DNA of 33,345 nt, from positions 1 through 33,345 of the forward strand of contig JASEFB010000003.1 in the NCBI GenBank assembly GCA_030019325.1, read 5' to 3'. This DNA is from an archaeon (GTDB taxonomy: Archaea; Halobacteriota; Syntropharchaeia; Alkanophagales; Methanospirareceae). Positions 3,889 to 13,352 of this stretch are shown here, in pieces. Both the position numbers and the translations under genes were made by a program. Under the pieces are notes generated by a model, which was not told the DNA's origin, did no database searches, and worked only from the letters and a program-made list of their open reading frames with translations. Within the stretch, counting starts at the first letter, position 1; each line of letters begins with the position of its first letter.

Positions 3889-5244
3889 TTATCGTACCGC
3901 CAATCCATATTTTTCCGCTATCTCTATGAACGCCTCACTGAGATACTTTATTCTGGCCCAGCTCAACCCGTACGTATTGAACTTCCACACCCGTGTTGAA
4001 CCTGCAAATTCGCCTACAATCTTCTTTTTCTTCAATTCATCACTGAGAAAGAACCCTCTTCGCTTATGCGTCTTCGCAACACGGTCAAAGCTCTCACGGG
4101 TATTAACCTTTGAAAGTGTATGTTTACGTGGATATTCACTTGCGATTTTATTCCCTTCGATGCGCAAGAACTCGCGGATGAAGTAATTTGATTTCTTCAC
4201 CTCCTCATCCCATCGCTTAACACGTTCTTTCACCTTCGGGAACGAAGCCATCATGGAGAGCACCGTTCCGCCCATCAGCGTGCACCCCAGCAGCACCGGC
4301 TCTTTATTCTCAAAGCTCCTGCCGGAAATATCGCCTACAATATGACTACTTCTGAACACTTTGGGTGCCCATTCGTCCGTCGTGGCAAGGACGCCAGAAG
4401 GTGCAACTGCAGCCATACTCTTGTGTCCCGAACCTACAACGAAATCAGCTCCTATCTTCTTACCATTCACCGGCATCACCCCCACGGAATACGCGCCATT
4501 GTAAAGAAAAGGAATGCCGTACTCTTTCGCAACCTTTCCCACGCCCTCTACCTCATGCTCGTTCCCGTAACTGTAATCAAAATGCTCGATCATAACGAGT
4601 TTTGGCAGTTTTCCCGTTTCCTCCTTCACCTGTTCTATGGTATTCGCAACTGCATCACCGGTAATTATATGCTTCGGCCCTGAAGGCACTTCTTTAATCA
4701 CGCCGCCTGCGATTTCTACCGCTAAGAATTCGGTATAATGTGCCAAATCGGAAACGATCACGATATCGCCTTTCTCGAGGAGCGAGGAAGTAACAGCCTG
4801 AAAACCTCGTCTCGCACCAGGCACAACCCGTGCTTCGTCCATGCCCACAAACTCGGCTAATTCCGCATGAAATTCATCCACCGGCGGTTTTTTAATCTTG
4901 TCGAGCCTGCCCTCCAGACACTGATCGCAGACTGAATAGCCATCCCCGTATGCAATCAGTGCTCTTCTCGCCTCGGGCGTTAATCTTCCCCCAGGTTGGA
5001 TAGGATTGATATTTATAAATTCCTCCTCTCTCGTCCTTAATTCAAGCCCCGCACTAACATCTTGTATGGGATTACCTTTACCTTCTTTTAATTCGCGTAT
5101 GAGCGCCTCTACGCGAGCTATGCCGTTCAAAAATTGCGCTTCTTCCTGTTCATCAAGTCCGGTGGGTAATGCGTGCCGGTAAAGCTCCCGCAAGTCTTCA
5201 AGGGCGAATAACGCTTCATAGATCTTACGTACTCTTAGGTTCAT
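3889..5244 (-). CDS. pscS: Sep-tRNA:Cys-tRNA synthase (SepCysS) with ~65-aa N-terminal extension
   Basis: INPIQPGGRLT, GDGYSVCDQC (Cys pair), PLP lysine in GSGHKS, LLGCT. Confidence 0.92.
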   Translation of the reverse strand: MNLRVRKIYEALFALEDLRELYRHALPTGLDEQEEAQFLNGIARVEALIRELKEGKGNPIQDVSAGLELRTREEEFININPIQPGGRLTPEARRALIAYGDGYSVCDQCLEGRLDKIKKPPVDEFHAELAEFVGMDEARVVPGARRGFQAVTSSLLEKGDIVIVSDLAHYTEFLAVEIAGGVIKEVPSGPKHIITGDAVANTIEQVKEETGKLPKLVMIEHFDYSYGNEHEVEGVGKVAKEYGIPFLYNGAYSVGVMPVNGKKIGADFVVGSGHKSMAAVAPSGVLATTDEWAPKVFRSSHIVGDISGRSFENKEPVLLGCTLMGGTVLSMMASFPKVKERVKRWDEEVKKSNYFIREFLRIEGNKIASEYPRKHTLSKVNTRESFDRVAKTHKRRGFFLSDELKKKKIVGEFAGSTRVWKFNTYGLSWARIKYLSEAFIEIAEKYGLAVR

Positions 5245-5434
5245 TTTTACATATCTCCATTCCCAAGACTTCTTTCAGCCCTTTGCAAATCCTTACATAA
5301 TACGGCGGATCGGTGAAGACCGCATAAAAGTAATTGTCAGGATAAGGTAGATTTGTTGCACTCGCTTGAAAGGCCTGTAAAGGTAGATTTGTTGTACTCG
5401 CTTGAAAGGCCTGTAGTATGTTATGGTTTTTCAT
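5225..5434 (-). pseudogene. Fragment of an adenine DNA methyltransferase (DUF1156-type)
   Basis: QASATNLPYPDNYFYAVFTDPPYY contains the DPPY catalytic motif; only 69 aa; overlaps the pscS start. Confidence 0.65.
5344..5415. repeat. 36-bp tandem duplication (2 copies, 1 mismatch)
   Basis: AAGGTAGATTTGTTG(C/T)ACTCGCTTGAAAGGCCTGTA at 5344-5379 and 5380-5415. Confidence 0.95.
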
Positions 5435-5436
5435 TT

Positions 5437-5787
5437 TTACCCTCCTTTTTCAAGTTCTGCAAGGATTTCTCGTAATTTGGGTATCAGCTCAGGTATCTCA
5501 AGTTTTATAGCATCCCATACCAATTTGTAATCTATTCCAAAATAAGCGTGGATTAACCGATCTCTCATGCCCGCCATTCTCTTCCAGGTGATTTCAGGGT
5601 GTTTTTCTTTTAAGCCCTCAGGAATGTGTTTTGTCGCTTCCCCTATAATCTCAAACTTTCTAATCACAGCACTTGAAGTTCTATCATCTTGCGTAAGCTC
5701 TTTAAGGCTCATACCTTCTACAAACCTTTCTATAGATTCCATAGCGAGGATTATGTCTTTTAAAAAGAGTTTGTAATCTCTCTTCAT
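5437..5787 (-). CDS. hepT: HepT-like / DUF86 HEPN ribonuclease toxin
   Basis: RKFEIIGEATK, WKRMAGMRDRLIHAYFGID (Rx4HxY); overlaps the upstream MNT gene by 4 nt. Confidence 0.9.
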   Translation of the reverse strand: MKRDYKLFLKDIILAMESIERFVEGMSLKELTQDDRTSSAVIRKFEIIGEATKHIPEGLKEKHPEITWKRMAGMRDRLIHAYFGIDYKLVWDAIKLEIPELIPKLREILAELEKGG

Positions 5788-6080
5788 ACCATCACCACCT
5801 CCTTGAGTATCTGTTCCTTCAGCTCCTCTCTTATTGCCCTCTCGGAAACGATATCCACTTTCACATCGAGTTTTTCTTCAAGGAAGTCTGCAAGACCAAC
5901 CAAATCAAACAATGTAGCCCCCTCGTGAAAGTTTACAAGAATGTCCACATCGCTACTTACTTTCTGCTCCCCTCGAACATAAGAACCAAATACGCCCATG
6001 ATCTCCGCCTTATAGTCCTTTTTTATCTGCTCTTCTAAACTTTGGAGAATTGTTATGATTCGCTCAAGTTCTTTATTCAT
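5784..6080 (-). CDS. mntA: Minimal nucleotidyltransferase (MntA-like antitoxin)
   Basis: FGSYVRGEQKVSSDVDILV (GSx10DxD); start moved to ATG 6080 (MNKELER). Confidence 0.88.
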   Translation of the reverse strand: MNKELERIITILQSLEEQIKKDYKAEIMGVFGSYVRGEQKVSSDVDILVNFHEGATLFDLVGLADFLEEKLDVKVDIVSERAIREELKEQILKEVVMV

Positions 6081-6318
6081 GCCTACCATCTCCCTTTTCT
6101 TTATCATTCGATAAGTGGGTGGTAGAGGATTTAGTGATAGCTGCAGGGATTGGACTCTCAAAGGCATGTAAAATCCACCTGTCTTTGTCGGACAAGCCCC
6201 ATGCATAAGAGCCATACAAAATTATTTTCTCCGGGTTATAACGTTCTTTTAACTTATCAGCGATAAGGGGAATTGTTTCTCTTGCTTTTTCCATTGTTTC
6301 TTTAGTTTCTTCTTTCAT
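6073..6318 (-). pseudogene. Truncated MNT N-terminus joined to unrelated sequence
   Basis: IADKLKERYNPEKIILYGSYAWGLSDKD breaks before the DxD motif; near-identical to the MNT domain at 10071-10169. Confidence 0.7.
6181..6279. repeat. ~100-bp direct repeat, copy 1 (MNT N-terminal coding sequence)
   Basis: Matches 10071-10169 with 7 mismatches in 99 bp by manual alignment. Confidence 0.92.
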
Positions 6319-6322
6319 TTCC

Positions 6323-6532
6323 TTACGCTGGAACTCTCCATCCAATTCTAACGCCCTCTTTTAGTATCGGTCGGATGTCATACCTTTTAAATATGCCTCG
6401 ATCCAGAACTTCTTTTCCATAAATAACCGTTCCATCCGCAAGAATATCTAAATTGAAATCATCCTTTACGGTGTTTTTTATTATCTCAATTATTTTCGTG
6501 ATTATTTTTTGATGCGATTCAATTAATGCCAT
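6323..6532 (-). pseudogene. Small ORF, probable internally deleted nucleotidyltransferase
   Basis: IITKIIEIIK N-terminus and FNLDILADGTVIYG resemble the ends of an MNT, but the catalytic GS..DxD core is absent. Confidence 0.4.
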
Positions 6533-6602: not shown

Positions 6603-7706
6603 TTAAAGGAAAGTAATTTGGGACTCATCCCGTAACCCACCACGTGGTCCTTTACCACTAGTCGAAATTTTACCTTCTTCTTCCAATTCTAATAATGCTT
6701 TACGATAATCCTTTTTGCTAAAATCCGTATCCATAAGGGTTTTGTATCTAACATTTTGATAAGATAATGTTCTGCCATTAAATCGAACTAACAAAAATTC
6801 TTTAAATTTTGATAACCCACCATATCGCGTTAGACTCATTTGTCCTTCTGCGGGACCTAAATATCCAAATCTACCCTCAGTTCCTGTTTTATACATTATC
6901 TCTTTCATTAACTCGCATCCCATTGGATGATTAGTGGCATGGATAAGATAATATATAGTTTGTAATTTTTCATCTGCATTCACTTTAAAAGGAAATGTAT
7001 ATTTTACATTTGCAGCCTCATGGAGCAGATTTCTATATAATTTCAGTAACGCTTGTTCTATTGGTAAATCTTGATATTCTATATTTAATATCCCTCGAAC
7101 ATCTGGCATACCATATAACTCTTCTATACTTCTTCGATGCTTAGAACTTTTCAAAAATCTGATAACTTCGCGAATCATAAAAGTAATGAACACTTCTGTT
7201 CTCTGAATCATGAGGATGTCTTTAATTACTCCAAATGGAACACCACTTAAACCAAATGGATCAATAAAAAAGAAAGAGGGCGCTAAGCGGTCACCAACTT
7301 TCTCTACAATTTCAGATGCCACATTACCGAATTCGTCATTAATAAGCACAATATTATCTTTTATCCCCTCATATTTTTTTGGATATGCTTTGATTTCCTC
7401 GTTAACCTCATTTTCAAGACTTTCAAAGTTGTTTGTATTGTTTCCAATGAAGAAACAGGTAATTTCTCTAAGATATGAAAATTTTTCTTTCGCTCTACTT
7501 GCAGTTTCTAATGCTATTAAAGGCGATCCTTTTGATCCATCACTATACTTGCCTCGACCGGCAAAGCAATCAAAGTAGCAGATGCGAAGATGCCTCTTTC
7601 CAAGGATTCTGATCCAACCACTGAGATATTTGCTTAATATCTCATGCTTTACTTTCGTATGCTCTTTATACTCCCACTTTTCCAGTGAATCGTCAGGCAG
7701 TGGCAT
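6603..7706 (-). CDS. tcmP: TcmP-like (three-Cys-motif partner) protein, SAM-binding methyltransferase-like fold with probable C-terminal winged helix
   Basis: WEYKEHTKVKHEILSKYL..W, YFDCFAGRGKY, GSPLIAL, FFFIDPFG, YYLIHATNHPMGCELMK. Confidence 0.8.
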   Translation of the reverse strand: MPLPDDSLEKWEYKEHTKVKHEILSKYLSGWIRILGKRHLRICYFDCFAGRGKYSDGSKGSPLIALETASRAKEKFSYLREITCFFIGNNTNNFESLENEVNEEIKAYPKKYEGIKDNIVLINDEFGNVASEIVEKVGDRLAPSFFFIDPFGLSGVPFGVIKDILMIQRTEVFITFMIREVIRFLKSSKHRRSIEELYGMPDVRGILNIEYQDLPIEQALLKLYRNLLHEAANVKYTFPFKVNADEKLQTIYYLIHATNHPMGCELMKEIMYKTGTEGRFGYLGPAEGQMSLTRYGGLSKFKEFLLVRFNGRTLSYQNVRYKTLMDTDFSKKDYRKALLELEEEGKISTSGKGPRGGLRDESQITFL

Positions 7707-7712
7707 TTTTTA

Positions 7713-8687
7713 TCACACACAATTACATTTAATCTTTCTATAATCCATCCCTAACGCTTCCCACATCTCCTTTGTTTCTTTACACAATGCAACATTGTCA
7801 TAATTATATTTCTCTTCGAGATAATTTATCACAGAATAATACATAGAATATCTAAGACTATTTTTTATTTTCTTACCCCAGTTTGATCGTTCTTCTAAAT
7901 ATTTCACCCAGGATGTATCGGTAGCACCATTAATAGTGCTTTGCAATCCCCGCAACGAGCCTATTGTTATTCGTTCAGGTGTGAATCTTGAGAAAATCTG
8001 ATCAACGAGCTCTTTATACTCATCTTCCCATTGTGATTCCGGAAATGGAATCATAGGGTCTATTCTTACCCTCGTTTCATAACCTGCATCGCTAACTTCT
8101 TTCGCCGCTTCTATCCTCCTTGCAACTGGTGCCGCTCCTATCTCCCATCTTTCAGCGTTTTCCGGCGTATTCAAACTGAAACTTATTATTGCATGGTCAT
8201 GTTTCTCTATTTCCAAAAGGTGTTTTACTTTGTCAGATTTTGTCAGAAACAGAACTTTGTGCCTGTCTTGGATCTCAAACAGAGGGATTAAAAACTTCGA
8301 GAAAGGTTCTTTTCCGTTTTCATCCATAAGAGAATCAGCAATCTCGCCAGTGTTGAGAATCTCTTTTGGATATGTTGCGAAAAATGTCTCTATATGTAGT
8401 TTAACTTTCTCCCTATCTTTAAAAACGGGTTTAGTCTTCGTTTCGAGAAATCTAAACGTTCCTTTTAAATAGCACCAAGCGCAATTAAAAGGACAGCCAT
8501 AGGCCCATTTCAATTCGAGAAAATGGGGGCATATAACATCTGTTGGTTTAGCTGGTAGAGGGGTTTTCTCAAACCGTTTTATGATTGAACCGTCCGCTAC
8601 CTGTTGAACCAAGCGTTGTTTACTTCCATCTAACAGTTCGTATTCATTTGTAAAGATATTCACTCTTGGATTGTATTCTGTGTTCAT
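7713..8687 (-). CDS. Spore-photoproduct-lyase-like radical SAM protein
   Basis: YGCPFNCAWCYL; TGEIADSL; FLTKS; SFSLN; RIEAA..GY..RVRIDPMI; ALCKE. Confidence 0.8.
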   Translation of the reverse strand: MNTEYNPRVNIFTNEYELLDGSKQRLVQQVADGSIIKRFEKTPLPAKPTDVICPHFLELKWAYGCPFNCAWCYLKGTFRFLETKTKPVFKDREKVKLHIETFFATYPKEILNTGEIADSLMDENGKEPFSKFLIPLFEIQDRHKVLFLTKSDKVKHLLEIEKHDHAIISFSLNTPENAERWEIGAAPVARRIEAAKEVSDAGYETRVRIDPMIPFPESQWEDEYKELVDQIFSRFTPERITIGSLRGLQSTINGATDTSWVKYLEERSNWGKKIKNSLRYSMYYSVINYLEEKYNYDNVALCKETKEMWEALGMDYRKIKCNCV

Positions 8688-8710: not shown

Positions 8711-9448
8711 CTACTCTTGTTCTGCCTCTTTTTCTATAAACTCAACGCTCAATGCACATTTATTCTCATTTAAGGATTGTAACAACAGTTGATCCTCTCT
8801 TATTTTCGTGATAATATCGGGATATGAGGAGAGCAACACAAAGAAAAAAGCATCCATTACTCTATTGGTAAACTCCATGCATTTGTAAAACAGTTCTTTG
8901 TTAAAGGCTAAAGTAACACGATAATCTACCTCTCCCTCCTCGATGGTTGGTCTTAGCTCTTCATATGAGCTATGGACGTATTTAGATAAATCAGAATATA
9001 ACACTTTCAATTCATTTTTATGCTCTAAATCAGTTCTATCGATCAATCTTCCTCCTATCAACTTATCTATTTCTTTTATAATCTCTAATTTACATCCTAT
9101 CATTGCCTCTGGATGTTCTCTATCGATGTAATAAGCTTGAAGAGCAGATTCCAAGATGTATCGGAGTTCACGAATGGATTGGTGATAAGCACCAGACAAA
9201 ACACTGAAATGTAGCCAAAAAAGTTGTTTCGTGAGTTCAAAGAATCGAAAGAATAACAGACCGTTATACTTTTCGAATTCTGACAATGAACTCATAAAAG
9301 GCCTGATTAAGTCTATCCAATTGTTATAGTGCTCAACCCACGTGACATAGTCTTTTTCTGGTATCTCCTCTTCAGTCTCTTTGCGTATCTCTCGAGCCAT
9401 CTTTATTAACTGAGCAAAGAGGCTGTCCCGATGTCCTTTTTCTGTCAT
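8711..9448 (-). CDS. Hypothetical all-helical protein, HEPN-like (DUF5677-like)
   Basis: GAYHQSIRELRYILE and LYSDLSKYVHS patterns resemble divergent HEPN families. Confidence 0.55.
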   Translation of the reverse strand: MTEKGHRDSLFAQLIKMAREIRKETEEEIPEKDYVTWVEHYNNWIDLIRPFMSSLSEFEKYNGLLFFRFFELTKQLFWLHFSVLSGAYHQSIRELRYILESALQAYYIDREHPEAMIGCKLEIIKEIDKLIGGRLIDRTDLEHKNELKVLYSDLSKYVHSSYEELRPTIEEGEVDYRVTLAFNKELFYKCMEFTNRVMDAFFFVLLSSYPDIITKIREDQLLLQSLNENKCALSVEFIEKEAEQE

Positions 9449-9487: not shown

Positions 9488-9871
9488 TCATTTCATCTCC
9501 TTCTGAATTCTTTTAACCAATTCTTTAGCCGCAATCAAGGATTTCTTAACCTCTTCTTTATCAGGTTGAGGAAAAAAGAACGGATAGCGTTCCTCAATAT
9601 AATAGGGATTGATTCGTTGACAGATATCACGGAATTGCTCGAAATTGGTATCAAATTGAACTACTTCGTCCAAAAGTCTTTCTAAATCGTGAACGGGCTT
9701 AAATTTCCAGCCCTTTGATAATAGATATCCTTTCAGGTATTTCTCGATGGCTTGTTGTAAATGGAATGTAGCATCCTCTGTATCGCCGTTCGCAAGCCGT
9801 TTTTCGACCCTTTCCAGATCCTTATCAGCTTTATCAAGCCAATCTTTCCAGTAGCGAGATTCCTTAGCCAT
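9488..9871 (-). CDS. HEPN domain protein (partner of the upstream MNT domain)
   Basis: WLDKADKDL, FHLQQAIEKYLKGYL, HDLERLL, YIEERYP; ATG 9871 overlaps the upstream stop (ATGGCTAA). Confidence 0.88.
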   Translation of the reverse strand: MAKESRYWKDWLDKADKDLERVEKRLANGDTEDATFHLQQAIEKYLKGYLLSKGWKFKPVHDLERLLDEVVQFDTNFEQFRDICQRINPYYIEERYPFFFPQPDKEEVKKSLIAAKELVKRIQKEMK

Positions 9872-12800
9872 ATAGAACTTTACCCCTTGAAATGATTTCC
9901 TGAAGGAATTGATCTCCACTATCAAGCCGGGATTTCAATTCTTGAGACGTAATAACAAAGATATCAACAGCATAGCCTCTTCTAAGAGGTGAAATAATTC
10001 GTGCCGCATTTACTATCCTATCATGAGGTTTTTCGTTGGTCTCCTTAATAACCAAGAGGTCAATGTCGCTGTCTTCATCGGGCAAGCCCCATGCATAAGA
10101 GCCGAATAAAATTATTTTCTCCGGGTTATAACGTTCTTTTAACTTATCAGCGATAAGGCGAATTGTTTCCTCGGTCTTCGCTTCACCACCCAAAATGATC
10201 CATTCCACGCACTTTTTAGCTTCCTCCAGAATTTCAGTAGCCTCTTCTCTCAGTCTTTTAGCAAGTCTGCGCCTGCGTTGGACCTCTTCTGCTATTTCTT
10301 CTTGGATTTCAAAATCGAGTTTTGGTATTAGTATTGAATTAATAACATCCTTTGTTATACCTGTCTGTGCCGCACCTGTTATCCTTCTTTGAATTTGCAT
10401 CTGTCCTGCGGCACCCTGCAAAAATGAGAAAACATAGTAAGGCTCTATGTTATCTTTTACTTGAATTAAGAATATATGCTCATTTATGTTACATTCATCA
10501 TACGGAAAGTCCGGAAGGATAATACCTACTTTTCCCGTGGTAGCTCCATCTTTTACCACAAGGATATCCAGAGGTCTTACAGACGTTTTGCTATATTTTT
10601 TATGAAAATCCAAAGGAACGTACTTTAAATCTTTTGTTTTGATTGTTCCGTCAGCATTGACATGTTCACCCCCTAAACTCGGAACACCATTTTCAATATT
10701 TCTAACCCCTCCTTTTGGTCGTTGGCCACTCATAATTGTGCTTGTTATTTCTTTTAACGATAATATGTCGCTTCTCCCTTCCAATTGTTTAATAAGTTCT
10801 TTAAATCTTGGCAAATAGTAAAAAGGGTCGTGCCTCTTCCCTTCTTTCACATCCTTCAAGGTAACAACAAAGCTCTTCCTCTCCTCTACTTCTGGAATTT
10901 CTATGCCCAGCTTGCCCAAGACATAATCGTTTATCCCCGTAAGTAAATCTTCAGCCTCTTTTAACTTCTCTTTTCTCTGCTTATAGGCTTCTTCCATTAT
11001 TTCCGCAATGCGGTCCTGAATTGGAGATTGTATTATTGGGATTTTTATTTGTCCAACTTCTTCTAAATTGATGTTTGCACGAGCAACTGGTCTTTTAAGG
11101 CGGTCTAATTGAACTTGACCAAACTTACTTCTCAAAAAATGAAGTACATAATAGGGATTAACTATCTCCTCTTTTAGTCTAGCACAAGCAATTGCCTGAT
11201 TAATATTGGCTTCTATTTCATCGCTAAAAATAGAAACTTTTCCTATGGTTGCTCCGACTATTGCAATTAATAAGTCATTTTTCCTGAGTTTTGACCTTTT
11301 TAATGCTTTATCGTGGATTTCTCTTTTAATAAATAGCACATCATCATAGTTTATGATATTTTCATCGGTTAGATCTCCACTTCTTATGAATGGGATACCC
11401 CTGTCCTTTCCAACATAAGCATCTCCTTTTGCTAAAGGTGTTGCTCCACTATTAATTGAAGCCGAAATTTCCTTTAATGTTTTTAACTTGCATTTCCTTT
11501 CTATTTCACTTATAATAGATAAATAAACAGGTTTATAGTAGCGTGGGTCAAACCTGTCCTCTAACTCACTTTGTCTCACCACAAAAGCAATTGGAGAATT
11601 ACTAAAATTTCTCTCACCTTCCTTAAAACCCTCCCAATCTTCCAAAATCTTTGGAAAATCGTTCTCGTCAGATCGCCCAGTTGCATCGTATCCTACATGC
11701 TCAGCAATAGCCATAAAAATAGGGTAATCGCCCATTTCTTCACCTTCTCTCTTCTTCTGCAGGAACACCAAAGACGCCTTCACGCCAGAACCACTTGGAA
11801 CAAAAGTTTGTTGCGGTAGAGAAATAACAGCTAAAATTCTCGCTCTTTTATCAATGAAATCACGAACATATTGCAGTGAGGAGTTAGTTAAAATCCCATC
11901 AGGGAGAACAATTCCCATCTTCCCCCCGGGGCGCAAAAAATCCAAGCATCGCTCGATGAACAAAATCTCGGTCTTTTGCGTTTTCCTCTTCTTGTATTTC
12001 GAACCGAGTTCATAAATCTTCAAAATCTTCTCGTCTTTTGCCACCGCGCCAAAAGGGGGATTCGTGAACACTAAATCGTATTTCTTTGGTTGAATCTCAT
12101 GTCTTCCAAACGTATCATACGCTTGCAGTGCATCGGCACATGTAATATTTGTGTGCCCATCATGATGAATTACCATATCCATCATAGCAATTCTCGCTAT
12201 GCGATCGTTAATCTCGATTCCATAGATGTGCCGGATTGCAAAATCTCTCGCTGCTTCGCTGTCTTTGCCATACTCCTCCCTAACTTTCTTCAAAGAGTAG
12301 AGCAGGAATCCACCGGAGCCACACGCTGGATCCATGATATAATCCTCGGCATCTGGCTCCAACATTTCTACCATGAAATCCACTATCTGACGCGGTGTAA
12401 AATATTGACCTGCGGAACCTCTGAAATACCGGTCCAAGAATTTCTCAAACGCTCTTCCTTTCGCATCCAAATCCGTCTTCGATAGCGAAATATCCTGCAA
12501 AATCTCTACTATCTTGTAAATCCTTTCGTCAGATAGCTCTATTAATTCTCTGAAAACGCCGGGCTCTCCTCTTTGTGCTCTCCCATATATCTCCTTAACT
12601 CTTCTCGCTACCTCAAAATCAGTTTCATTCGTTCCTATTTGAAACTTATAAAATTCTCCTTCCCTTGTAAATCGTTCATCATGAATCTTAGCAAACATTA
12701 GCTTACTCATCTCATCGAAAGAAACGGCAGGGTCTCGTTTACCACCTTCCCAAATCTCATCATGACACCTCTGGAATTTATTGTGCAGTTCATTAAGGCT

Positions 12801-13352
12801 CGCCTCTTTGAGGTCGAAAAACACGCCGCCTCCCTTTTTATACCTGTATTTCGGTAATTTTCCATAGGCTACAGGTATTTGTGGAACTCTTTTGCTCTCC
12901 AAAGTTTGTAAAGAGGGGTTTTCTTCGACATCATAAGCCATTTCCTCCTCTCCACAAACCACAAATAAATATTTCGCACCTAACAAGTTTGCGTTCCCTA
13001 AACCCTCCTTTTTACCTGTTTCAATTTCATTCCCCGAAGAGGTTGCTTTTGTTTCAACAACGATGAAGACCTTCTCATGTTCATCATCTTCATAAACCAC
13101 CACATCAGCAGGATAAGGTGGCGCTCTACTGGGTGGATAAACTTCCGTGTCTATCCTACTCGCTGGATATTTGTATTTTTCAATGAGCTCGACATAAACT
13201 CTTGCCCTAACTGGCTCCTCAGGGTCGGTAAATTGATATGTCTTCTTCTCCTTCGTGCCTTCGTAAGTTATTCTCCCGTCTCGTATCGTTATGAGCTTCT
13301 TTTCTTCGCCTGCTGCTAATATATCTTCTGTGGTTTTGAATTCTCTTGGCAT
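9864..13352 (-). CDS. Single-chain restriction-modification enzyme (HsdR_N-type nuclease + N6-adenine MTase + two HsdS-type TRDs; type IIB/IIG-like) fused to a C-terminal MNT domain
   Basis: EEPVR...ADVVVY...IVVETK nuclease; GQYFTPR, DPACGSGGF, NPPF; two TRD/coiled-coil units; C-terminal FGSYAWGLPDEDSDIDLLV. No helicase motor motifs seen. Confidence 0.88.
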   Translation of the reverse strand: MPREFKTTEDILAAGEEKKLITIRDGRITYEGTKEKKTYQFTDPEEPVRARVYVELIEKYKYPASRIDTEVYPPSRAPPYPADVVVYEDDEHEKVFIVVETKATSSGNEIETGKKEGLGNANLLGAKYLFVVCGEEEMAYDVEENPSLQTLESKRVPQIPVAYGKLPKYRYKKGGGVFFDLKEASLNELHNKFQRCHDEIWEGGKRDPAVSFDEMSKLMFAKIHDERFTREGEFYKFQIGTNETDFEVARRVKEIYGRAQRGEPGVFRELIELSDERIYKIVEILQDISLSKTDLDAKGRAFEKFLDRYFRGSAGQYFTPRQIVDFMVEMLEPDAEDYIMDPACGSGGFLLYSLKKVREEYGKDSEAARDFAIRHIYGIEINDRIARIAMMDMVIHHDGHTNITCADALQAYDTFGRHEIQPKKYDLVFTNPPFGAVAKDEKILKIYELGSKYKKRKTQKTEILFIERCLDFLRPGGKMGIVLPDGILTNSSLQYVRDFIDKRARILAVISLPQQTFVPSGSGVKASLVFLQKKREGEEMGDYPIFMAIAEHVGYDATGRSDENDFPKILEDWEGFKEGERNFSNSPIAFVVRQSELEDRFDPRYYKPVYLSIISEIERKCKLKTLKEISASINSGATPLAKGDAYVGKDRGIPFIRSGDLTDENIINYDDVLFIKREIHDKALKRSKLRKNDLLIAIVGATIGKVSIFSDEIEANINQAIACARLKEEIVNPYYVLHFLRSKFGQVQLDRLKRPVARANINLEEVGQIKIPIIQSPIQDRIAEIMEEAYKQRKEKLKEAEDLLTGINDYVLGKLGIEIPEVEERKSFVVTLKDVKEGKRHDPFYYLPRFKELIKQLEGRSDILSLKEITSTIMSGQRPKGGVRNIENGVPSLGGEHVNADGTIKTKDLKYVPLDFHKKYSKTSVRPLDILVVKDGATTGKVGIILPDFPYDECNINEHIFLIQVKDNIEPYYVFSFLQGAAGQMQIQRRITGAAQTGITKDVINSILIPKLDFEIQEEIAEEVQRRRRLAKRLREEATEILEEAKKCVEWIILGGEAKTEETIRLIADKLKERYNPEKIILFGSYAWGLPDEDSDIDLLVIKETNEKPHDRIVNAARIISPLRRGYAVDIFVITSQELKSRLDSGDQFLQEIISRGKVLYG
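10071..10169. repeat. ~100-bp direct repeat, copy 2
   Basis: Partner of 6181-6279, offset 3890 bp. Confidence 0.92.

Follow-up and report, generated by a model that had tools for sequence, protein, structure and literature searches.

Few radical S-adenosylmethionine (SAM) enzymes are known to act on DNA, those described being spore photoproduct lyase (SPL; SplB; TIGR04070; PDB 4fhc/4fhf) and gp53 of phage M6, an SPL-like isomerase of thymidine hypermodification that, by its published description, restructures a DNA base (Lee et al. 2021, PMC8989533). The CX3CX2C motif of radical-SAM enzymes is also carried by DUF5131 ('three-Cys-motif' proteins, phage Gp37/Gp68), which together with TcmP makes up the PADLOC candidate systems PDC-M30 and PDC-M41. 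Here we analyse a 33,345-nt stretch of archaeal DNA (contig JASEFB010000003.1, Methanospirareceae; hereafter the window) that encodes, on its minus strand, an SPL-fold radical-SAM protein with a CX3CX2C motif (P0002, 324 aa, 7713..8687) followed by a TcmP protein (P0001, 367 aa, 6603..7706). The two genes belong to a real conserved unit, for which we tentatively favour the role of a two-part DNA base-modifying enzyme that would travel with restriction systems.

The spacer from the radical-SAM stop to the TcmP start measures 6 nt (7707..7712, minus strand), so that co-translation is probable. A sequence-only reading of the window had singled out this arrangement, describing a CxxxCxxC SPL-like gene 6 nt before a TcmP-like gene (DCFAGRG, IDPFG) in an AT-rich setting near restriction-modification and HEPN genes, and the open reading frames (ORFs), motifs and GC content all confirm the description. 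We take the TcmP family, from its name, to be defined by an adjacent gene for a three-Cys-motif partner; in the window this place is filled by the CX3CX2C protein 6 nt upstream, a member of an SPL-like clade and not of DUF5131.

P0002 exceeds the thresholds of both the Radical_SAM superfamily (PF04055, 32.1 bits; cut-off 29.5) and Pfam SPL (PF20903, 56.9 bits; cut-off 27), and its motif cysteines (C65/C69/C72) are kept in 59/59 aligned relatives. The predicted model (pLDDT 95.5) matches SPL 4fhf in VIA-align with a Z-score of 24.3 (253 residues aligned, root-mean-square deviation (rmsd) 2.5 Å) against 16.2 for the next family, and Foldseek likewise places SPL (E 6.5e-14) well ahead of the next family (2.5e-5). 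The family profile finds SPL at E 1.7e-26, in a match that stops at residue 303, beyond which lies a family-specific C-terminal tail, and a BFVD fold search returned generic phage radical-SAM proteins as its sole matches. Despite the shared fold and radical-SAM core, P0002 is not an SPL, in keeping with the sequence-only reading, because it scores 68.7 bits against the equivalog TIGR04070, whose cut-off is 400 (TIGR03886: 48.6 against 437.55). It is only 16-18% identical to SPL, and it has four extra cysteines, an obligate TcmP partner and a host that does not form spores. The SPL hydrogen-donor cysteine, which we take to be C140 of the G. thermodenitrificans enzyme from the position of the C140A/C140S mutant entries, has no counterpart among P0002 residues 110-125, the segment aligned with it; C140 falls on S119 or E115, depending on the alignment used. 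The phage enzyme gp53 is set apart by its description, in which it partners a kinase, a transferase and pyridoxal phosphate enzymes, works on bases derived from 5-hydroxymethyldeoxyuridine and does so without TcmP (PMC8989533).

Across the 59 relatives, whose identity reaches down to ~30%, the invariant residues comprise C53, K150, R191, C302, K303, E304 and C321 in addition to the CX3CX2C cysteines, and C323 is kept in 98%. From this conservation, C53, C302, C321 and C323 probably form a second metal site. The family is large: at E <= 0.001 there are 1867 relatives of nearly the same length and 438 that are longer. In a 15-row tree of radical-SAM proteins the window protein groups with proteins from assemblies labelled Methanosarcinales, ANME-1 and Halobacteria (support 100/99); the deeper branches form a backbone without resolution, and we therefore claim neither a donor nor a direction of transfer.

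The relation of this clade to DUF5131 is closer than the sequence-only reading had assumed. Aligned by hhalign with a DUF5131 set drawn from 201 genomes of the same phylum, the P0002 family matches at 97.8% probability (E 1.3e-12, 185 columns) with the CX3CX2C motifs in register, which makes P0002, as judged from the profiles, a homologue and sister form of the usual DUF5131 partner of TcmP. In agreement with this, the RadicalSAM.org resource assigns DUF5131 and SPL to adjoining parts of a single megacluster (PMC9477430). The two pairs are alike in sharing one TcmP family, a homologous CX3CX2C partner, tight coupling and mobility. They differ in the window partner, which exceeds DUF5131 by ~90 residues, has a beta domain at its N-terminus and a tail at its C-terminus, and carries, beyond the three cysteines conserved in DUF5131, four more that are invariant; it also passes the threshold of Pfam SPL, and in its family fusion to TcmP is frequent. 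Read as the displacement of the usual partner by an unrelated radical-SAM enzyme acting on DNA, the earlier proposal does not hold, since DUF5131 is a homologue of this family.

Nor is DUF5131 the usual partner in the sample at hand. TcmP is present in 20/201 genomes of the phylum, at 22 distinct loci, where its neighbour most commonly belongs to the SPL-like clade (9/22), against 3/22 for classic DUF5131; a third, intermediate clade accounts for 7/22, and the neighbour is not recognisable at the remaining 3/22. Because the SPL-like form is the commonest neighbour, the window shows no exotic replacement. Members of the third clade (L147, L149, L165 and others) match both the SPL-like and the DUF5131 hidden Markov models (HMMs) weakly, some of them with a CX3CX3C motif. 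One locus from a genome of the same family (L148, G157:C131) combines a TcmP gene of 76% nucleotide identity with an SPL-like gene on one side and a DUF5131-like gene on the other. The window's own assembly also has DUF5131 in its classic form, as a gene scoring 133.5 bits on a separate 2.4-kb contig (L116, C46 1208-1807), and the window TcmP is the sole one found there.

Against PADLOC, P0001 scores 116.2 bits with PDC-M30A, the long TcmP (PDC-M41A being the short one), and component B of the system, which like PDC-M41B is DUF5131, is absent: P0002 gives no match to PDC-M30B or PDC-M41B, for which true DUF5131 proteins reach 394 bits, nor to PF07505 at E <= 0.01. The window pair is a variant of candidate PDC-M30. 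Its SPL-like partner matches no PADLOC model, and this form of the system is currently missed by defence-finding tools. PDC candidates were drawn from genes lying within BREX, DISARM and type I restriction-modification systems and are presented as untested candidates (bioRxiv 10.1101/2024.01.29.577857). The module is not new in the sense first proposed, its sister pair being PDC-M30/M41 and such proteins already being named TcmP or 'spore photoproduct lyase' by NCBI and JGI; new here are the seven-cysteine signature by which the SPL-like clade differs from DUF5131, the count of partner types beside TcmP in the phylum sample, the Glu88->Gly exchange of the window copy and the repeat-bounded cassette described below.

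P0001 is a clear member of the TcmP family (TIGR04474, 209.6 bits; cut-off 53), with DCFAGRG at residues 46-52 and IDPFG at 148-152. Residues ~1-290 form an RlmJ-like class-I methyltransferase fold, and a C-terminal GMT-like winged helix follows at residues 298-352 (PF22560, 37.3 bits). The predicted model (pLDDT 92.4) is best matched by the 23S rRNA m6A2030 methyltransferase RlmJ (6qe5_A; Z 17.8, rmsd 2.9 Å), with 211/270 residues aligned, helical subdomain included, so that the match spans almost the whole RlmJ chain; the next are Trm1 (Z 15.2) and generic methyltransferases (no higher than 14.6). By sequence the relatedness is not significant, RlmJ appearing at E 2.5 when the TcmP profile is run against PDB sequences, and at 15% probability, with motif I alone aligned, when hhalign compares the family with the single E. 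coli RlmJ sequence.

The invariant residues of TcmP are K20 in helix 1, D46, A49, G50 and D149; P150, F151 and G152 are near-invariant, and the D149-P-F-G segment sits straight after strand 4 of the model. The structural study of RlmJ assigns catalytic roles to K18 and D164 and the binding of the cofactor ribose to E118 in motif II (PMC3814359). K20 and D149 appear to match the logic of Lys18 and Asp164, an equivalence taken from strand order in the model and not from residue superposition. Both proteins have a similar motif I sequence and appear to share a helix-1 Lys and a motif IV Asp; they differ in motif IV (DPPY in RlmJ, DPFG in TcmP), in the added winged helix of TcmP, and in that RlmJ is a housekeeping enzyme and TcmP is mobile and partnered. 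At position 88, the putative motif II acidic position after strand 2, 50/52 sequences carry Glu and one Asp, and the window copy alone has Gly (codon GGA, 7443..7445, minus strand).

That the radical-SAM and TcmP genes form a unit is borne out well beyond the window. A genome scan for P0002 relatives returned 16 loci, of which 13 have the gene at full or nearly full length, and in 11/13 a protein above the TIGR04474 cut-off adjoins it; in the two exceptions TcmP is a stump of 67 residues (L002) or an unrelated ATPase-like gene stands in its place (L005). Metagenomes were queried with the closer family alignment and arrangements were called with our own HMMs of both families: among the best 80 of 551 confirmed matches, TcmP is adjacent or fused in 71/80, lying upstream of the radical-SAM gene in 51, downstream in 8 and within a single ORF in 12. 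Space on either side without TcmP was found in 2/80 (L062, L100; 2/73 assessable), the contig was too short for a call in 6, and the radical-SAM gene itself was uncalled in 1 (L070). The expectation that the pair would recur is hence borne out across archaea, bacteria and some viral contigs. Loci that are more alike in one of the two proteins tend to be more alike in the other (r 0.43 between pairwise identities over 54 loci; maximum of 0.19 in 200 label shuffles), which is consistent with co-inheritance, although kinship among loci inflates such an r, and their median pairwise identities differ widely, at 0.66 for the radical-SAM protein and 0.23 for TcmP. As a separate observation, some Baldrarchaeota-type and viral contigs have a single TcmP with two SPL-like radical-SAM paralogues in tandem ahead of it (L012 4602-6945, L013 491-2647, L017-L019).

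Gene fusions point the same way. Among the 438 longer relatives, the 120 listed measure 577-743 aa and all contain PF20903 (120/120), 63/120 also contain the PF22560 winged helix, and NCBI names some of them TcmP. Domains were assigned in 26 long representatives (25 chosen by length among 150 listed, plus P0065): four are TcmP-radical-SAM fusions above the cut-off, 11 carry a ParB-type domain, one an HsdS-type specificity domain, five an intein-type match, and five show no added domain above threshold. Because it recurs both in other genomes and as gene fusions, the pairing goes far beyond chance, and fusions, coupling and motif conservation together show a two-part SAM-using enzyme. Inteins were seen within the radical-SAM domain itself in family members P0136, P0183, P0201, P0149 and P0152.

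The outside neighbours of the module, 125 ORFs in the list that we scanned for families, give an indication of the company it keeps. A type IIG Eco57I/MmeI-like restriction gene is the direct neighbour in 14/80 metagenome loci (13 upstream on the same strand, 1 downstream) and in L009. LexA lies immediately upstream in two of the 80 (L107, L112), RecX is a neighbour in three (L075, L086, L092), and ParB genes adjoin in L020 and L113. Further neighbours are TIR proteins (L002, L038), Schlafen/AlbA_2-HATPase proteins (L008, L009, L061), DUF3800 (L062, L111) and an SNF2-PLD protein (L098), and TrmO lies downstream in 2 loci. On viral contigs, TcmP is found with the four close relatives (56-60% identity) and L021 and with none of the 12 distant relatives (26-34% identity, L022-L033), of which L023, L030 and L033 adjoin N6/N4 DNA methylases.

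A second setting is methionine salvage, with mtnA upstream in 20 metagenome loci and mtnP downstream in 17 metagenome loci and L003. The MtnA proteins at these loci are 61-91% identical to one another, and the module has a GC content of 0.37-0.43 between flanks of 0.49-0.60 (9-20 points lower), so that the mtnA/mtnP position appears to have served for a long time as an insertion site within a single bacterial lineage. Methionine-salvage genes also salvage the by-products of radical-SAM enzymes and methyltransferases, and a functional link to the salvage of SAM by-products is a possible alternative for these loci. At these loci (20 among L041-L090, and L003) the module is sometimes accompanied by a type IIG restriction gene, and in L003 genes for SAH hydrolase and SAM synthetase are close by.

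In the window, the pair sits within a low-GC stretch that extends from the housekeeping SepCysS gene (3889-5244) to ~14.4 kb and of which the two genes are the most AT-rich part (GC content 0.378 for the radical-SAM gene, 0.348 for TcmP, 0.442 outside the island). The island reads, on one strand, RadC, a 1162-aa restriction-modification-specificity protein (9864..13352, minus), HEPN (145 aa, 9488..9925, minus), P0003 (245 aa, 8711..9448, minus), radical SAM, TcmP, orf69 (6323..6532, minus) and a downstream MNT/HepT toxin-antitoxin-type pair (5437..6215, minus), and thus carries one restriction-modification gene and two MNT/HEPN pairs. The 1162-aa protein, a neighbour and not part of the core, is a single chain with HSDR_N_2, N6_Mtase and two Methylase_S domains followed in frame by a C-terminal MNT domain, whose partner is the neighbouring HEPN protein; its gene begins after a 1-nt gap from RadC and overlaps HEPN by 62 nt, with gaps of 39 nt from HEPN to P0003 and of 23 nt from P0003 to the radical-SAM gene. 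In the ANME-1 contig L014, the homologue of this restriction-modification gene stops short of the MNT part.

Two direct repeat copies of 101 nt, 93% identical and on the minus strand, bracket a 3.9-kb block comprising the 3' part of MNT, HEPN, P0003, radical SAM, TcmP and orf69: copy B (10069..10169) is the live MNT start inside the restriction-modification gene, and copy A (6179..6279) is a dead 5' MNT relic just after orf69. Contig L014 has these pieces too, but circularly permuted, and its radical-SAM gene is cut to 34 codons. The repeat-bracketed block and its permuted counterpart indicate that a cassette is gained and lost through recombination at MNT gene starts. Decay is also seen at other related loci, where TcmP is reduced to 67 residues (L002) or split (L010). 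The GC contrast, the 101-nt repeat and the patchy occurrence of TcmP (20/201 genomes) identify the pair as a low-GC mobile cassette.

DNA is in our reading the most likely substrate, given the SPL fold, the occurrence on viral contigs, the domains fused to the radical-SAM protein (ParB, HsdS) and the genes next to the module (restriction-modification, LexA, RecX, ParB); here phage M6 gp53 provides a precedent as an SPL-like radical-SAM enzyme described as remodelling a DNA base (PMC8989533). A DNA-directed role beside restriction systems, which the sequence-only reading had suggested, remains the best reading in view of the fusions and restriction-modification neighbours. In the model that we propose, the two genes would give one two-part enzyme acting on DNA, equivalent to the single fused polypeptide of many other organisms. 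TcmP, as an RlmJ-like SAM binder with a pocket of the base-flipping type and a winged helix, would find DNA and present a base, most likely a purine, which it may also N-methylate. The SPL-fold subunit would cleave SAM at the [4Fe-4S] cluster bound by CX3CX2C and so generate a 5'-deoxyadenosyl radical for C-H chemistry on the presented base or on its methyl group, probably assisted by the second metal site of the four extra invariant cysteines. The outcome would be a base covalently modified within DNA, a change that in some viruses would mark or protect the DNA. A specific form of this model, in our estimate rather unlikely as it stands, is purine hypermodification by a methylate-then-radical-elaborate route, or its mirror image, an oxygen-independent N-demethylase that would be an anaerobic counterpart of AlkB. 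On the former route TcmP would N-methylate the flipped base, the seven-cysteine subunit would abstract a hydrogen from the new methyl group, and an auxiliary Fe-S cluster at C53/C302/C321/C323, beside K303/E304, would build this methyl larger. Trm5 and TYW1 in wybutosine synthesis offer an analogy.

Several observations weigh against a DNA-modifying enzyme of this kind. The structures closest to TcmP, those of RlmJ and Trm1, belong to enzymes that methylate RNA; 20/80 metagenome loci lie amid methionine-salvage genes and not in defence islands; and the metagenome counts are not independent, being taken from the top 80 of 551 matches, many of them from sediment lineages related to one another. 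Our literature search found no functional study of TcmP, PF22560, DUF5131 or PDC-M30/M41. The window TcmP itself may bind SAM poorly, to judge from the alignment, because Gly replaces the near-invariant Glu88. Repair is as good a fit as modification to the LexA and RecX neighbours and to SPL being a repair enzyme, and the explanation by repair, in which the complex reverses a lesion such as an alkylated or cross-linked base by SPL-like radical chemistry, with TcmP recognising and flipping the lesion, would suit anaerobes, where oxygen-dependent repair is impossible. We regard it as unlikely, if the most serious of the rivals: SPL is the closest structure, LexA stands immediately upstream in 2 and RecX adjacent in 3 of the 80 metagenome loci, and RadC heads the window island, but P0002 lacks the SPL hydrogen-donor Cys within residues 110-125, and the patchy, low-GC, mobile cassette has restriction-modification neighbours in 15 loci as opposed to LexA or RecX in 5. 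The HsdS- and ParB-type fusions moreover suggest site-directed or processive action and not a search for lesions, and hypervariability such as that of TcmP relative to its partner (0.23 vs 0.66) would be unusual in a repair factor.

The same structural matches raise the question of RNA. TcmP might modify rRNA or tRNA in the manner of RlmJ or Trm1, with the radical-SAM subunit elaborating the base, as its top two structures, a motif I resembling that of E. coli RlmJ and the two loci with TrmO downstream would suggest; against this stand the patchy and mobile occurrence, the ParB/HsdS fusions, the restriction-modification neighbours and the viral contigs, and the RlmJ active site has itself been likened to those of DNA m6A methyltransferases (PMC3814359), so that we hold this to be the least probable of the explanations considered, and very improbable. 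Scarcely better placed, and improbable in our view, is a defence effector that would damage or block foreign nucleic acid, as a restriction-like or abortive-infection arm and not as a writer of a self-mark. The listing of the sister pair as PDC-M30/M41, from defence-embedded genes, and the TIR, Schlafen/AlbA_2, DUF3800 and MNT/HEPN neighbours speak for it, yet PDC systems are described there as untested candidates, the pair also occurs in viral contigs and housekeeping operons, and neither toxin-immunity logic nor a sensor domain is visible. Independently of any of these functions, the family may be functional and the window copy decaying cargo, its TcmP crippled by Glu88->Gly and its cassette a leftover of recombination, which we consider a fairly slim prospect. 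Gly88 is confined to the window copy, the presumed equivalent in RlmJ, Glu118, is reported to hold the cofactor ribose, gene decay is seen in L002, L010 and L014, and a dead MNT relic flanks the cassette; both frames are nevertheless intact with every other invariant residue present in both proteins, a base-presenting protein may tolerate Gly88, and the exchange may be a wrong base call or assembly error in a metagenome-assembled genome.

The two-part DNA base-modifying enzyme that we favour would matter chiefly through its family, which is large, moves between archaea, bacteria and viruses and often lies directly behind restriction enzymes. Identifying its product would either bring to light a further DNA modification, relevant to epigenetic marking, to conflicts between phage and host and to tools for sequencing or biotechnology, or reveal oxygen-independent DNA repair; the hypermodification or N-demethylase route, if true, would be new DNA chemistry common to archaea, bacteria and viruses. 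Tests are feasible, since TcmP relatives are found in sources that bear the names of cultured methanogens (Methanosarcina mazei, Methanosarcina sp. MTP4, Methanolobus and Methanobacterium). The window taken alone is a modest finding, one further copy that is possibly weakened.

The remaining features of the window lie outside the conserved module. We weighed P0003 as a possible third component and discarded it, as it has no homologue in any fetched related locus and belongs to no HMM family; its likeness to DUF5677/DUF6988 clusters, scored at 0.96, comes from language-model features alone. Among related loci, orf69 is conserved in L014 only. Sigma-70 promoters, a model unsuited to an archaeon, were fewer than in shuffles (17 vs 23.5), as were terminators (4 vs 6.3). 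Two tandem 36-nt copies (97% identical) lie at 5344-5415, within a small family-less ORF (5225-5434). A second, unrelated radical-SAM gene on the minus strand (1777-2829), with an AmmeMemoRadiSam-/activase-type likeness of 67 bits that falls below the cut-off, adjoins a PIN gene and a DUF1670 gene.

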